A stretch of 64,000 nucleotides of DNA from a virus: positions 53,558 through 117,557 of IMG/VR virus record IMGVR_UViG_3300048850_000068; one strand, written 5' to 3'. Below the pieces are notes generated by a model, which worked only from the letters and a program-made list of their open reading frames with translations, ran no database searches and had not been told where the DNA came from. The translations under genes were made by a program, and so were the position numbers. Positions 32,671-34,675 of this stretch are shown one piece after another. Each line of letters opens with the position of its first letter. Position 1 is the first letter of the stretch.

Positions 32671-33180
32671 ACAACTTCACCAAGGATAGGGCGCCTGGGA
32701 GTGGTTCTCCTGGGCGTCTCTCATACGGGGCGCCGTATAACCGCAGACTATCCGCCGGAGCGTATGGGTGTCCGAAGACCGCAGCATGGTTCGGACGATC
32801 CGGAGAACGCTGAGCCTGACTAATCATTTCCGGGCAATTTCAAACCGTTCGCCAAGGATACGCCCGGAAGAGCTCGGAACACCCGAGGCAATGTATAGGC
32901 GCCCGGGCTGTCTATCTAAGACTTCGATATTTCACAGAAAATCGACTCGCTCGAAGCGCAAGCTAAGCGCTGCTAGAGACGCGCACGCGTGCACAGATGC
33001 GCAATCACTCACGACGATCATTCAATCGCGCTCACGCACGCTTAGAACGCATTTAATCGCACATCGCGAATGTATAGCGCTCATACGTATGCAAGCGCGC
33101 ATGACGCACGCACACTAGCGCTACACAGTAACTCATACTAACGATCTAGTCTGACAACGATCTAAATCGCTTTAAGAGCG

Positions 33181-33209
33181 TTGACAGTAAGTCAGCACTG
33201 ACTTAGTTT
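33181..33209 (+). promoter_or_regulatory. sigma70-type promoter with operator palindrome in the spacer
   Basis: TTGACA-17 nt-TAGTTT; TAAGTCAGCACTGACTTA at 33188-33205. Confidence 0.8.
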
Positions 33210-33373
33210 AATACTCACAAGAGAGCAACGCGACGCAGCAAGCGACACGCAAAGCGCTCTTGAGAGAACAAGTTCTCGCTGCTCTTTGACACTGTGAATA
33301 AGCAAAAGACTACAAACGCAAAGACTAGCGCGTTTCAAAACAAAGCTAGTTGCTATCAATGAAAGCGAACACA

Positions 33374-34024
33374 ATGTTCAACACTGCTACTGAGTTCAAG
33401 TCTGCTATGCTCTCTGCTATCTCTTCGCGCTTCATGTATGAAGCAAAGAAAGCAAGCGCTGAGCATAACGTCGAAGTCACTGAAGAGAACTTCAGAGACG
33501 TTCTCAAGACGAATAACTCTTCAATGTTCGACACGCTTAAAGCTATCGAAGACAGCGCTAAGCATGACGTTATTAGCAACATCATGTTTCTTGCTAACTG
33601 CGATGCTGAACGCATCAATCGCAGCGAACGCTCTAACGCACGTTACAACGTCTATGCGTATGAGAAAGATATCAACATCGCTCGCTGTGCTGCTTCAGTC
33701 GAGAGACTCAATCACTACACGAAAGCAATTCTTCAGACTGCGAAGAAATTCGCTGAGCAAGAGACTGAATTGCTACTCACTCACGACGATGCACAAAGCG
33801 CTTGTTCGCTGAGTGTGAAGACTAGCGATAGCAAGCGCGAACGTCTCATCGTCAAGTATCAGAAGCATGTGAGCGCGAAGACTGCTAGCACACAGTCTAG
33901 CTCTTCGATCAACGCTCTTCAAAGCTTCAATGTCTTGATTGAGACGCGCGACGCAAGCAACAAAGTCGCTTATAAACTCAACATGAACAACGATCTAACG
34001 CAGCGCTTGCTTGAGCGCTGCTAA
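33374..34024 (+). CDS. Gly/Pro/Trp-free protein, paralogue of 34860-35744; probable C-terminal winged helix
   Basis: INRSERSNARYNVYAYEK and VSAKTASTQSSSSINAL align with the neighbour; no G, P or W. Confidence 0.85.
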   Translation: MFNTATEFKSAMLSAISSRFMYEAKKASAEHNVEVTEENFRDVLKTNNSSMFDTLKAIEDSAKHDVISNIMFLANCDAERINRSERSNARYNVYAYEKDINIARCAASVERLNHYTKAILQTAKKFAEQETELLLTHDDAQSACSLSVKTSDSKRERLIVKYQKHVSAKTASTQSSSSINALQSFNVLIETRDASNKVAYKLNMNNDLTQRLLERC

Positions 34025-34035
34025 GCAACACTAAC

Positions 34036-34063
34036 GAGAGACGCGAGCAATCGCGTCTCTTTA
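34036..34063 (+). terminator. Hairpin terminator/attenuator (GG/CC-free)
   Basis: AGAGACGCGA-gcaa-TCGCGTCTCT-TT. Confidence 0.65.
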
Positions 34064-34099
34064 CTCAAAACAACAAAGCGAACACAAGAAAGCTTAACA

Positions 34100-34291
34100 A
34101 TGTCAAAGACATTCAAAGATATGCGCGAGCTGAGCGCAGCGAAAGCGAAGAAGTTAGCGAAGACGCGCAAAGCAAAGCGCGATGTGCTCAACATGCTCTC
34201 GAAAGCATACGACACTAGCTCGCAAGTCTTCGAGTTCTTCGAAGAGAACGAATACTCACTCACGCGTGACGATGTGAAGGCGCTAGTCTAA
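34100..34291 (+). CDS. Small Gly/Pro/Trp-free protein, basic N-half
   Basis: 63-aa ORF; GG-less purine-rich leader AAGAAAG. Confidence 0.65.
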   Translation: MSKTFKDMRELSAAKAKKLAKTRKAKRDVLNMLSKAYDTSSQVFEFFEENEYSLTRDDVKALV

Positions 34292-34458
34292 TGATCTACG
34301 ATGCAATCGACTTCACTCGCACGAACTTCGCAGCGCTGCTTGTCATCTTCGCAATGATATGCGCGCTATGTCTCACAGCAGTTACAATGTTGCGAGACTA
34401 TCTCGACGCGACGCGCTACAGAGTGCGCGCACGACGCATGCGACGCTATCGCTACTGA
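34291..34458 (+). CDS. 55-aa single-TM protein with Arg-rich tail (not in ORF track)
   Basis: MIYDAIDFTRTNFAALLVIFAMICALCLTAVTMLRDYLDATRYRVRARRMRRYRY; TAATG overlap with upstream ORF. Confidence 0.6.
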   Translation: MIYDAIDFTRTNFAALLVIFAMICALCLTAVTMLRDYLDATRYRVRARRMRRYRY

Positions 34459-34463
34459 GTTAC

Positions 34464-34497
34464 AAAGCGCGACGCTATACAGTGTCGCGCTTTTTTA
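34464..34497 (+). terminator. Intrinsic terminator closing the island operon
   Basis: AAAGCGCGACGCT-atac-AGTGTCGCGC-TTTTTT. Confidence 0.8.
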
Positions 34498-34523
34498 TTG
34501 CGTTACGTTTGCAACGTTATATT

Positions 34524-34675
34524 GCCTGTGGCAGGAATGCCATGTGGCAGCGGAGCCATGTGGCTTTGGGACCATGTGGCCCGGAAGTGACGTGGCATTC
34601 CTACCATGTGGCTTTTCCGCCATGTGGCGGGCCGACCACGTGGCTGGAATACCATATGGCGGAAATACCACGCAA
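34524..34675. repeat. Tandem array, 16-bp period, core CCAYRTGG
   Basis: Cores at 34524, 34540, 34556, 34572, 34588, 34604, 34620, 34636, 34652, 34668. Confidence 0.9.

Follow-up and report, generated by a model that had tools for sequence, protein, structure and literature searches.

A tract of 1.6 kb in the phage genome studied here is practically devoid of the dinucleotides GG and CC. Within the window, i.e., the whole stretch of 64,000 nt that was analyzed from a genome of 117,557 nt, this island (32907..34524, no strand) contains 0 CC and a single GG at 34279-34280. Considering all the evidence, we lean towards reading it as a terminal cassette under DNA-level word avoidance, a general statement that is tied to no particular reader of the word.

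A 1.6-kb island without GG and CC

The earlier note on this DNA had reported no CC and one GG between 32908 and 34524. Our recount of these 1,617 nt gave the same figures, against approximately 183 GG+CC predicted from the base composition of the tract itself. GC (n = 169) and CG (n = 148) are frequent in the same 1,617 nt; the observed/expected ratios are 1.64 for CG and 1.87 for GC, and 1.13-1.43 for CT, TC, AG, and GA. The edges are as sharp as had been described, with the nearest outside GG/CC at 32906 on the left and 34525 on the right and 68-92 GG+CC in each of the flanking 500-nt bins. The GG/CC-free gap ranking second measures 70 nt in the window and 87 nt in the whole 117,557-nt genome, in which a search for a second island found none. 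A literature search found no description of such a GG/CC-free tract.

From composition alone, the island would arise with P ~1e-80. In a soil-metagenome DNA run, which is probably the source sample and hence not independent, the entire stretch was present in one contig with 0 differences. Islands of the same type occur in isolates, complete plasmids, and metagenomes, and because the independent assemblies of relatives carry them, an assembly artefact is excluded. Given these data, and encoded proteins that remain without glycine, proline, and tryptophan at identities down to 37%, we consider the probability that the island reflects chance, artefact, or an engineered insert to be negligible.

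Gene content of the island and its flanks

The island carries three open reading frames. ORF1 (33374..34024, + strand; 216 aa, or 221 aa from an alternative ATG at 33359) represents the conserved island core. ORF2 (34100..34291, +; 63 aa) contains the lone GG, and its stop overlaps the start of ORF3 (34291..34458, +; 55 aa) in the sequence TAATG. ORF3 has one hydrophobic helix and an Arg-rich tail. All three proteins lack glycine, proline, and tryptophan, which for the regulator encoded by ORF1 follows from the GG/CC-free DNA. We found no family match for ORF2, and tblastn against pAMS5a and the M. oryzae plasmid revealed no homologue; ORF2 is lineage-specific cargo.

Upstream of ORF1 lies a promoter-like site (33181..33209, +) with TTGACA at -35 (33181-33186), a 17-nt spacer, and a -10-like TAGTTT (33204-33209). 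Its previous description as a consensus promoter was too strong, because the -35 element is perfect but TAGTTT matches TATAAT in only 3/6 positions and a sigma-70 consensus scan of the region called 0 sites. The site is clearly unlike the phage-specific GCAATCCG-N11-12-GCTATA promoters, in which the -35-like box GCAATCCG contains CC. The claim that approximately 270 nt 5' of the promoter-like site are also free of GG and CC holds on the sequence. The promoter spacer harbors an operator palindrome, TAAGTCAGCACTGACTTA (33188..33205, no strand), of which we counted 44 copies genome-wide (≤2 mismatches). Its core is kept in pAMS5a and the M. oryzae plasmid, and the palindrome is found near ORF1 at three further loci (L011, L012, and L014). 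The ORF1 promoter would thus share its operator with about 44 genome sites, mostly the phage's own promoters, which suggests that ORF1 is part of a master on/off circuit.

A 10-bp hairpin between ORF1 and ORF2 (34037..34060, +) is a possible partial terminator, and a strong intrinsic terminator (34464..34500, +; hairpin 34464-34493) with a 13-bp stem and a T-run follows ORF3. The ribosome-binding regions are free of GG: AAAGCGAACACAA precedes both ORF1 and ORF2, and relatives have GAGAGA-type leaders. A soil metatranscriptome contained only two identical 151-nt pieces within the island (depth 2).

Outside the island, 3' of a parA/ribbon-helix-helix operon, the sequence CCAAGGATA occurs at 32680..32688 (+), and a second copy was read from the sequence at 32852..32860 (+). 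An alignment of relatives shows recurring CCAAGG(A/G)T repeats 5' of the boundary element described below. At the other edge, an array of about 10 CCAYRTGG units at 16-nt steps (34525..34671, no strand) begins at the first CC past the island, and similar CCATGG/CCACGG-rich arrays adjoin ORF1 in relatives. This array is a putative binding array for winged-helix paralogues or may form a barrier. It is followed by a 309-aa gene of ordinary composition (34860..35789, - strand) and a repeat- and palindrome-rich untranslated region (35790..36990, no strand) with TCTCTATAGAGA-type palindromes, 31-33-nt inverted repeats, and a 23-nt direct repeat. GG/CC is normal in this gene and the untranslated region (166 per kb). 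By analogy with the boundary sequence of the phages V1VFA-S and B1VFA, the inner boundary of a terminal repeat would lie near 36460. A search for DnaA-box enrichment gave 6 matches against 4.85 by chance and none in the untranslated region. In its anatomy, the repeat-rich untranslated region together with the CCAYRTGG array that borders the island on the inner side is at most suggestive of a T5-like injection stop.

ORF1 is a putative winged-helix regulator

Glycine, proline, and tryptophan are wholly absent from 61 of 84 ORF1 homologues. ORF1 and the 309-aa protein, which has an acidic N-terminal extension, match each other in BLASTP with E = 8e-13 and 25% identity. The domain they share lacks the three amino acids in 36 of 73 short-type cluster representatives but in only 1 of 71 N-extended paralogues, in which it has a median of 13 Gly/Pro/Trp residues. 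On this comparison, ORF1 is a shortened and recoded paralogue of the adjacent gene.

The AlphaFold model of ORF1 has a pLDDT of 95.8. Residues ~100-216 superpose on winged-helix regulators (MarR, Fur, and ArsR-like proteins, ORC/Cdc6 winged-helix domains, and TubR) with a best Z of 8.6 (6pco_A; rmsd 2.6 over 77 residues), where a Z of ~8 can reflect a common arrangement. Among the structure matches listed for ORF1, winged-helix domains overwhelmingly prevail. Foldseek with the same model gave no match at E ≤ 0.001. At the sequence level, Pfam yielded nothing at E ≤ 0.1 except a spurious SOAR match below its cut-off, a PDB profile search gave 0 matches at E ≤ 10, and PHROGs and PADLOC contained no family match. 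ORF1 thus matches no Pfam or PDB-profile family, and its helical N-terminal half could be assigned to no fold. The C-terminal half is a predicted winged helix, and we regard ORF1 as a putative winged-helix DNA-binding regulator.

The ban is conserved in relatives and under current selection

A syntenic island is present at the same location in the Rhizobium phages V1VFA-S and B1VFA, in Methylobacterium pAMS5a, and in IMG/VR contigs, as the earlier note had expected, and supports a self-contained cassette. The group carries plasmid-maintenance genes and its members occur as plasmids; these phages are probably temperate. The cargo genes differ among relatives, and all of them lack glycine, proline, and tryptophan. 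Since the non-coding DNA is included as well and the tract holds with ORF1 on either strand, the earlier proposal of a constraint on the nucleic acid, whichever proteins it encodes, stands.

V1VFA-S and B1VFA differ by 67 substitutions in 704 shared island positions. None of these creates GG or CC, against 16.1 expected, and 0 of 2,000 simulation runs gave zero GG/CC-creating changes. This substitution pattern shows that the ban is under current selection. In the leaky island of L015, GGT/ACC accounts for 25 of 28 residual sites, and judged by this residue the banned word is GGV in at least one lineage; its reader would behave like an enzyme with drifting specificity.

The earlier note had named normal GG/CC at orthologous loci as evidence against its reading. 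Such loci exist in one lineage only, represented by L003 and L018, whereas the other relatives keep the ban. Although GG/CC is normal in this lineage, its ORF1 protein is almost free of Gly, Pro, and Trp, so that the loss of the island reads as a recent relaxation.

These patterns bear on a mutational origin, in which terminal single-stranded exposure, e.g., by end resection before circularization, would deliver the DNA to a CC-preferring cytosine deaminase, with the proteins adapting afterwards. A terminal location makes resection plausible, and the G+C content of the islands (0.46-0.53) is below that of the genomes (0.55-0.66). However, CG and GC are enriched above the deamination products CT, TC, AG, and GA, the edges are sharp within a few nucleotides, and the ban is complete despite the cost of three amino acids. 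Together with the specific tolerance of GGT/ACC in L015 and the regain of normal GG/CC at the same location in one lineage, this makes mutation a highly improbable explanation.

The island starts at a boundary element and probably forms the end of the virion DNA

In every arrangement, with ORF1 in either direction, the island begins at a boundary element, and this anchoring is a new observation. In the window, the element (32887..32929, +) consists of GGCAA (GGCAT in relatives) and, exactly 30 nt start-to-start, TAAGACTTCGATA, with CTAAGACTTCGATA at 32916-32929, and it points into the island. Relatives have GGCAT-30 nt-CTAAGACTTCG, and the general form is GGCAT-30 nt-(C)TA(A/G)GACTTCG. The window, V1VFA-S, and B1VFA all have the exact 14-mer CTAAGACTTCGATA at the edge of the island, and L012 and L015 have variants of it. 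We detected the element with the 30-nt spacing at 12 loci, the island-less L003 and L018 included, and also in pAMS5a. ORF1 is co-directional with it in the window, L001, L026, L014, L008, L011, and L016, and antisense to it in L012, L015, L017, L018, L003, and pAMS5a.

Both orientations are equally clean, and the tract is anchored to the element and not to a gene, which argues against a constraint on the RNA. According to that explanation, transcripts would avoid GG and CC so as not to be cut by a ribonuclease or bound by a repressor, or to allow translation without Shine-Dalgarno sequences under attack on ribosomes or tRNAs. The GG-less ribosome-binding regions fit this idea, as do the RNA-repair genes carried by the phage (RtcB and a PNKP-type phosphatase) and the short GG/CC-free leaders after the phage's own promoters (24 gaps of at least 50 nt against 6.6 in block shuffles). 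Moreover, residual sites in leaky islands, read along the sense strand of ORF1, are asymmetric (53 CC against 15-16 GG, compared to a CC/GG ratio of 0.98 in ordinary genes), but this would follow if ACC (Thr) codons were the first to return. The approximately 270 nt upstream of the promoter-like site in the window are also clean, and we know of no ribonuclease that reads both GG and CC. We therefore consider an RNA constraint very unlikely.

The earlier note had proposed mapping the genome ends relative to the island. The published direct terminal repeats measure 3,605 bp in B1VFA (determined with PhageTerm) and 3,939 bp in V1VFA-S (determined from coverage, PhageTerm being inconclusive), a difference of 334 bp. 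When the two genomes were anchored at the motif, the offset of V1VFA-S minus B1VFA was 0 at -158 to +71, 333-335 at +1034 to +3962, 345 beyond +3962, and >800 left of -167. The repeat lengths fit (334 published against 335 aligned) only with an outer boundary between -158 and +23 of the motif start, and motif+3939 (V1VFA-S) and motif+3605 (B1VFA) align as homologous positions to within 1 nt. Since the published lengths fit only with the element as outer boundary, the virion DNA probably ends physically with the island, a conclusion that draws on the repeat lengths of these two phages and one alignment and is extended to the window genome by analogy. Alternatively, the terminal repeat may lie elsewhere and coincidentally have a 334-bp indel; for a B1VFA repeat at record positions 1-3605, V1VFA-S is too divergent for comparison.

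The probable terminal position in B1VFA and V1VFA-S supports the former suggestion of a start-up operon on first-entering DNA. The clean part would comprise only the outer 0.75-2.2 kb of the 3.6-3.9 kb repeat. Because the rest of this repeat has normal GG/CC, being first-entering DNA does not by itself define the tract.

A reader of the avoided word

Taken together, the island may well constitute the outer 1-2 kb of the direct terminal repeat in a siphophage capable of plasmid life as well. Its DNA would then very probably be among the first to enter the cell, and its small cassette would be read by the host's own RNA polymerase. The core gene ORF1 would supply a winged-helix DNA-binding regulator, recoded from the 309-aa gene beyond the CCAYRTGG array. 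No GG/CC (in at least one lineage, no GGV) would be allowed between the DNA end and this array, since a DNA-level factor reading a very short word would act while the cassette must still work, and the cassette would escape by presenting no site to it. A ban that removes three amino acids implies that some factor reads GG/CC on DNA; such a reader and its kind are what we infer, as are expression by the host polymerase and entry of this DNA ahead of the rest. Our preferred version, held tentatively, is an enzyme of the phage lineage that either sets a dense GG-context DNA mark or is a short-word nuclease; a host system ranks below it and appears doubtful. The probably temperate lifestyle argues against an early nuclease that destroys host DNA.

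To find candidates for the reader, we inspected the rest of the genome. GTAC and CAGCTG are both absent genome-wide, and the palindromes avoided more than two-fold are GTAC, CTAG, CAGCTG, GTCGAC, and AGATCT. CCGG is over-represented, and ~18,000 GG/CC sites lie outside the island. The phage proteins scanned included no candidate for a GG/CC reader. The most conserved genes among relatives (74-83% identity) are two ParB-N genes and an ABC-ATPase gene adjoining the terminase. The M. oryzae plasmid, which has no island, retains these genes intact (75-83% identity), and this counts against them as the reader. A 594-aa DUF4942/methyltransferase-like gene is absent from both Methylobacterium relatives. 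In a comparison of three genomes, the genes present in the two with an island and missing from the one without were mainly rIIA and rIIB, for which we know of no link to DNA words.

One form of a phage enzyme, already among the options of the earlier note, would be a dense modification of the phage's own DNA that marks GG/CC (GGV), shields the genome, and hinders host polymerase or regulators, with the cassette offering no markable sites. The banned word varies by lineage, as shown by L015 and as expected for enzyme specificity, and the conservation of the terminase-side cluster would fit such an activity. In addition, all five avoided palindromes lack GG/CC and could not be shielded by a GG/CC mark, although this is not significant (~0.29 by chance). 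However, no base-modification enzyme was recognizable in ~60 of ~155 predicted genes, the suspect cluster is intact without an island, and phage promoters with CC in GCAATCCG must still function. V1VFA-S and B1VFA were sequenced with an Illumina kit based on enzymatic fragmentation, and the paper mentions no difficulty. Furthermore, the purging of GTAC and CAGCTG indicates that the remaining DNA is exposed to ordinary restriction, which fits poorly with a dense protective mark. We thus regard this form as unlikely.

A host defense that needs GG/CC, i.e., a CRISPR PAM or short-word restriction, would have to act only on the unprotected end that enters first. PAMs of this kind exist, for instance CC for type I-F and NGG for some type II systems, and CRISPR adaptation favors the end injected first, as far as the first Chi site. 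The position of the island at a probable DNA end agrees with this, and according to Davison's preprint (10.1101/866236), T5 is sensitive to EcoRI and CRISPR-Cas only in its first-step-transfer DNA. On the other hand, a host enzyme cutting GG/CC would shred a genome with ~18,000 such sites outside the island, and depletion does not extend to the neighboring part of the terminal repeat. The genome is also visibly exposed to ordinary restriction, and a CC PAM would not spare ACC/GGT as L015 does. We rate host defense as quite unlikely, below modification by the phage itself.

Comparison with known systems

Positionally, the island resembles the first-step-transfer DNA of T5, which enters first, is read by host polymerase, and encodes the DNA-binding protein A2 (10.1101/866236). 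Davison also proposes there that this DNA is free of the sites that the phage itself attacks when degrading host DNA. T5 and the phages studied here are large siphophages (~120 kb) with direct terminal repeats and a small gene set at the outer end, followed by repeat- and palindrome-rich untranslated DNA. The similarity is one of position, with the terminal-repeat placement inferred from B1VFA and V1VFA-S. Unlike T5, these phages have plasmid-maintenance genes and occur as plasmids, their repeat is 3.6-3.9 kb instead of 10 kb, and no island protein is of the size or type of A1. ORF1 and T5 A2 are not homologous (hhalign probability 0.2% for the ORF1 family), and the T5 first-step-transfer DNA has no dinucleotide ban, its longest GG/CC-free stretch being 87 nt.

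The phenomenon is a form of motif avoidance. It shares with restriction-site avoidance and PAM depletion a short word that is missing beyond chance and kept out by selection, and the same genome shows the classical form at GTAC and CAGCTG (0 sites each). It differs in word length (two to three letters), in its completeness, in its confinement to 1-2 kb, and in expelling three amino acids. Chlorella viruses have enzymes for very short words, such as the CCD nickase/methylase pair Nt.CviPII/M.CviPII. As such viral enzymes read words of two to three letters, CC-based ones included, a GGV/BCC reader is biochemically plausible, although the host range and biology of those viruses differ from the phages described here.

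Implications

A total ban over 1-2 kb that is conserved to 37% protein identity and costs a protein family three amino acids is far harsher than any described avoidance of restriction sites or PAMs. It implies an agent, whether a DNA mark, a nuclease, or a binding factor, with GG/CC-only specificity, and to our knowledge none has been described from bacteria or their phages. With the tract linked to a physical end of the DNA, the question can be put to the test, and by analogy the tract may offer an account of how first-entering phage DNA survives what destroys or silences other DNA, which is not yet settled for T5 either. GGCAT-30 nt-CTAAGACTTCG plus a GG/CC-free tract provides a simple marker of the genome terminus for this phage group, and the island proteins are natural working examples built from 17 amino acids.

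It is conceivable, and we put this forward with caution, that these viruses form a superfamily of large phage-plasmids with an enzyme, so far undescribed, whose word in double-stranded DNA is GG(V), and with a winged-helix regulator kept in a word-free terminal 'clean room'. If so, the enzyme would either mark about one in seven base pairs of the packaged chromosome or be a nuclease with dinucleotide-level specificity. The master regulator would be protected for boot-up, and its family would have done without glycine, proline, and tryptophan since diverging.

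The GG/CC-free island

The earlier note had described a 1.6-kb stretch nearly devoid of GG and CC, and dinucleotide counting confirmed this. Between positions 32908 and 34524 (1,617 nt) the window contains no CC and only one GG (34279-34280), compared with approximately 183 GG and CC dinucleotides predicted from the composition of the tract itself (P near 1e-80). G and C remain frequent (354 G and 415 C), and GC and CG are enriched, with 169 and 148 occurrences and observed-to-expected ratios of 1.87 and 1.64, respectively. The edges are defined by a preceding GG/CC at 32906 and a following one at 34525. 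The next-longest GG/CC-free gap measures 70 nt within the window and 87 nt within the whole 117,557-nt genome, in which our gap scan found no second island. Literature searches yielded no description of a GG/CC-free island.

The island carries three plus-strand genes, ORF1 (33374-34024), ORF2 (34100-34291), and ORF3 (34291-34458), whose products do not contain a single glycine, proline, or tryptophan. Both terminator hairpins noticed previously are present, one as a hairpin at 34037-34060 and one as a terminator at 34464-34493. The proposed promoter TTGACA-17-TAGTTT has a perfect -35 element (33181-33186), but its -10 element matches the consensus at only three of six positions, so that the label "consensus promoter" was overstated; a promoter scan called no sigma-70 site there. 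The 13-nt word AAAGCGAACACAA is found directly before the ORF1 ATG (33362-33374) and again at 34075-34087, 13 nt (34088-34099) before the ORF2 ATG, and may represent a GG-less translation-initiation signal. Leaders in relatives have GAGAGA-type sequences in its place.

General restriction avoidance was rejected as the cause of the ban, since, among the 64 possible 6-bp palindromes, we counted 50 without GG or CC and since the island is rich in such sites, with GCGC, CGCG, and ACGCGT-type sequences being plentiful. A soil-metagenome DNA run examined for the window is probably its source sample. A soil RNA run contained five identical pieces of 151-161 nt, two of them inside the island, at a depth of 2-9. 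These are too few to claim expression of the island, and DNA carry-over is possible.

The replicon and its relatives

Gene content indicates that the replicon is a siphophage-type genome of approximately 118 kb with plasmid functions. Among its products are a DnaE-type polymerase, ribonucleotide reductase, SbcC, ligase, DnaB, a tape measure protein, and a J-like tail protein, together with ParA, a ribbon-helix-helix protein, ParB-N proteins, RtcB, a PNKP-type phosphatase, rIIA, and rIIB. Two Rhizobium phages, V1VFA-S and B1VFA, are related to it, as are two repC-carrying Methylobacterium plasmids of about 117 kb. Both Rhizobium phages have been classed as siphophages, with direct terminal repeats and features of phage-plasmids, and the island is not mentioned for either of them (PMC12509600).

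Nearly all genes are located on the minus strand, and the sole plus-strand block (27727-34458) comprises a helicase, a dNMP kinase, ParA, the ribbon-helix-helix gene, and the island. The RtcB RNA ligase (53593-54957) and the PNKP-type HAD phosphatase (23547-24029) form an RNA-repair pair, which hints that cleavage of tRNA or mRNA is part of the battles between phage and host. The first and last 200 nt of the genome contig have a common internal repeat of ~80 nt, away from the exact ends, and rIIB and rIIA homologues straddle the contig ends (61056-63958 in the window and the contig start, 330-1259 of L004). The assembly is probably circular or permuted, with the contig broken inside rIIA.

Conservation of the island

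The earlier note had expected a syntenic island in related phages, and GG/CC-free tracts are indeed located between parA and the gene for a 309-aa protein in many relatives. The clean tract spans 1,279 nt in V1VFA-S, 851 nt in B1VFA, 1,531 nt in the Methylobacterium plasmid pAMS5a, and 750-979 nt in IMG/VR contigs. In four further loci (L007, L008, L011, and L016) it is broken by a few GG/CC sites, and in locus L015 approximately 2.2 kb contain 28 sites compared with ~300 expected. Normal GG/CC density was found only in the Methylobacterium oryzae plasmid (L003) and in L018, which are near-identical in the island region and hence represent one lineage. Since the ORF1 proteins of this lineage still contain only three glycine, proline, or tryptophan residues per ~200 aa, we read its lack of an island as a recent relaxation of the constraint.

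The protein composition is similarly widespread, with 61 of 84 ORF1 homologues (37-100% identity) lacking glycine, proline, and tryptophan. Searching 1.84 billion cluster representatives with a profile retrieved 394 clusters at E <= 1e-3, and we examined 144 of the best 150. Among these, the shared domain was free of the three residues in 36 of 73 proteins of the short, ORF1-like type compared with one of 71 N-extended proteins (median 13 residues).

V1VFA-S and B1VFA differ by 67 substitutions in 704 shared island positions, and none of these created a GG or CC. Placing the same substitution spectrum at random within the shared positions gave an expectation of 16.1, and zero was obtained in none of 2,000 simulations, which indicates that the constraint is still operating. 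The ban on GG and CC is real, conserved, and under selection.

ORF1 and its varying partners

ORF1 is the only island gene that is universally present, whereas its partners vary: ORF2 and ORF3 in the window, an 85-aa ORF in V1VFA-S, and 146-aa and 63-aa ORFs in pAMS5a. As all of these varying partners lack glycine, proline, and tryptophan throughout, the constraint is tied to the position and not to one protein.

Across a repeat array, ORF1 faces a paralogue of ordinary composition, the 309-aa gene at 34860-35789 on the minus strand (BLASTP E = 8e-13). The AlphaFold model of ORF1 is confident (pLDDT 95.8), and residues ~100-216 superpose on winged-helix DNA-binding domains (best Z 8.6, rmsd 2.6, 77 residues aligned); the structural matches listed are overwhelmingly winged-helix proteins. 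Foldseek returned no match to the model at E <= 0.001, and searches of Pfam, PHROGs, PADLOC, and PDB profiles gave nothing usable for ORF1, ORF2, ORF3, or the 309-aa protein.

An operator shared with the phage promoters

The 18-nt palindrome TAAGTCA-N4-TGACTTA occurs in 44 copies genome-wide (at most two mismatches; 22 exact), almost all of them intergenic. Copies in the window include those at 4161, 9145, 10566, 14156, 15758, 16738, 16805, 19459, 27674, 29574, 33188, 47404, 50443, and 61001. The core AGTCA-N4-TGACT is kept in pAMS5a and the M. oryzae plasmid. The distribution looks like a genome-wide operator network, for which ORF1 is one candidate binder.

On the minus strand, the palindrome usually lies 3' of a phage-specific promoter motif, GCAATCCG-N11-12-GCTATA (for example at 56428-56358, 49984-49921, 39516-39454, and 61034-60979). 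This motif is often followed by the operator palindrome and then by a GG/CC-free leader that extends to the Shine-Dalgarno sequence. The island copy of the palindrome (33188-33205) is instead placed within the spacer of TTGACA-17-TAGTTT, suggesting that ORF1 is driven by a different, host-like putative promoter under the same operator. Short GG/CC-free leaders at phage promoters gave 24 gaps of at least 50 nt, compared with 6.6 in block shuffles; being AT-rich promoter, operator, and leader segments, they were not treated as the same phenomenon as the island. The relatives encode a sigma-factor-like protein.

Candidates for a reader of GG/CC

Among the genes compared, no candidate was identified for a reader, i.e., a factor acting on GG/CC. 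The ParB-N/ABC-ATPase genes by the terminase are highly conserved yet intact in the island-less plasmid and were therefore discarded. Conservation among the relatives is highest for a 212-aa ABC-type ATPase (24843-25481) and a 322-aa phrog_886 protein (21778-22746), both encoded beside the terminase and the ParB-N genes (74-83% identity, versus 73% for the terminase large subunit). A 594-aa protein (40186-41970, minus strand) combines DUF4942 with a C-terminal methyltransferase-like region; this gene was rejected as the reader because it is missing from both Methylobacterium relatives. Comparing the gene content of two island-bearing genomes with that of one island-less genome singled out rIIA and rIIB along with a few small genes. 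Homologues of rIIA and rIIB are present in pAMS5a and B1VFA and absent from the island-less M. oryzae plasmid, but with three genomes only and no mechanistic link we did not accept them as the cause.

In leaky islands, CC on the ORF1 sense strand makes up most of the residual sites (53 CC versus 15-16 GG; CC/GG ratio in ordinary genes, 0.98), and ACC (threonine) codons explain much of this strand excess. In L015, 25 of the 28 residual sites are GGT/ACC. In this locus the ban is on GGV, a lineage difference typical of enzyme specificity.

Outside the island, the whole genome lacks GTAC (~305 expected) and CAGCTG (~64 expected), contains 16 GACTC/GAGTC sites instead of 107, and is strongly depleted of CTAG, GTCGAC, and AGATCT. 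None of the strongly avoided palindromes contains GG or CC, and CCGG is over-represented. With GTAC and CAGCTG absent genome-wide, the bulk DNA is not generally shielded, and ordinary restriction is met by purging of sites throughout the genome. A host enzyme cutting GG/CC would face approximately 18,000 sites outside the island, so that a host reader would have to resemble a PAM-dependent system.

A conserved boundary element at a probable genome end

The word CTAAGACTTCGATA is located exactly at the left edge of the island in the window (32916-32929), V1VFA-S, and B1VFA, and variants mark an edge of the island in L012 and L015. The window island itself showed no blastn similarity to the islands of the two Rhizobium phages. 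The word belongs to a bipartite element (GGCAT-30 nt-CTAAGACTTCG) present in 12 loci, including pAMS5a and the island-less lineage, with the consensus GGCAT followed, at exactly 30 nt from start to start, by (C)TA(A/G)GACTTCG. It is preceded by CCAAGG(A/G)T repeats. The flanking order is constant: parA, the inward-pointing element, the island, a CCAYRTGG-type array, and the 309-aa gene. ORF1 points in the direction of the element in seven loci and in the opposite direction in six, so that the clean tract is anchored to the element rather than to the ORF1 transcript. In the window, the CCAYRTGG array (34525-34671) consists of about ten units spaced exactly 16 nt apart and separates the terminator of the island from the 3' end of the 309-aa gene; similar arrays exist in relatives, including the island-less one. 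Since an Rfam search of 32300-34800 gave nothing above threshold (a sub-threshold "Erse" match on the repeat array scored 16 bits against a gathering score of 138), the boundary element is not a known RNA.

The position of the genome ends relative to the island, which the earlier note had proposed to map, can be approached through the published direct terminal repeats of 3,605 bp in B1VFA (PhageTerm) and 3,939 bp in V1VFA-S (PMC12509600), a difference of 334 bp. We aligned the two phages around the boundary element, with positions given relative to the motif. The offset of V1VFA-S minus B1VFA exceeds 800 left of -167 (extra DNA in B1VFA), is 0 from -158 to +71, 333-335 from +1034 to +3962, and 345 beyond +3962; the step to 333-335 reflects a 333-bp insertion in V1VFA-S that constitutes its second island ORF. 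If the repeat overlaps this region, the 334-bp difference can arise only when its outer boundary falls in the interval from -158 to +23 relative to the start of the motif. Furthermore, with the motif as the anchor, position +3939 in V1VFA-S corresponds by homology, to within 1 nt, to position +3605 in B1VFA, and both positions lie in the untranslated region past the 309-aa gene. Repeat lengths and alignment together make it quite probable that the boundary element marks the outer boundary of the terminal repeat, at the edge of the island. A repeat running leftward from the motif was rejected because B1VFA has at least 806 bp extra there, which gives the wrong sign. Equating the start of the GenBank record with the terminus was rejected as a general rule, since the two records begin at non-homologous places. 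Alternatively, the B1VFA repeat might occupy positions 1-3605 of its record, a stretch that V1VFA-S does not match, its similarity starting only at 4094.

In the window, the untranslated region at 35790-36990 (1.2 kb) contains at least seven TCTCTATAGAGA-type palindromes, inverted repeats of 31-33 nt (36037-36126 and 36561-36636), and a 23-nt direct repeat (36817 and 36921). The inner boundary of the terminal repeat may lie in this region.

The layout resembles the terminal region of phage T5. According to a preprint by Davison (10.1101/866236), the left terminal repeat of T5 enters first, carries pre-early genes including that of the DNA-binding protein A2, and terminates in an injection stop signal rich in repeats and palindromes. 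The preprint also states that T5 is open to EcoRI and CRISPR-Cas only in its first-entering DNA, and presents Davison's proposal that this DNA lacks the sites attacked by an A1-dependent activity degrading host DNA (10.1101/866236). In contrast to the island, the first-step-transfer DNA of T5 shows no word ban, its longest GG/CC-free stretch being 87 nt, and the ORF1 family is not homologous to A2 (probability 0.2%). DnaA boxes are not enriched in the region studied here.

The start-up operon proposed in the earlier note is partly supported, as a self-contained cassette now tied to an inferred DNA end. By analogy, the terminal repeat of the window's phage would run from ~32,9xx to ~36,460 and would contain the island, the array, the 309-aa gene, and part of the untranslated region. 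If the boundary holds, the packaged DNA of V1VFA-S and B1VFA would begin with the island, which would make up its first 0.85-1.3 kb.
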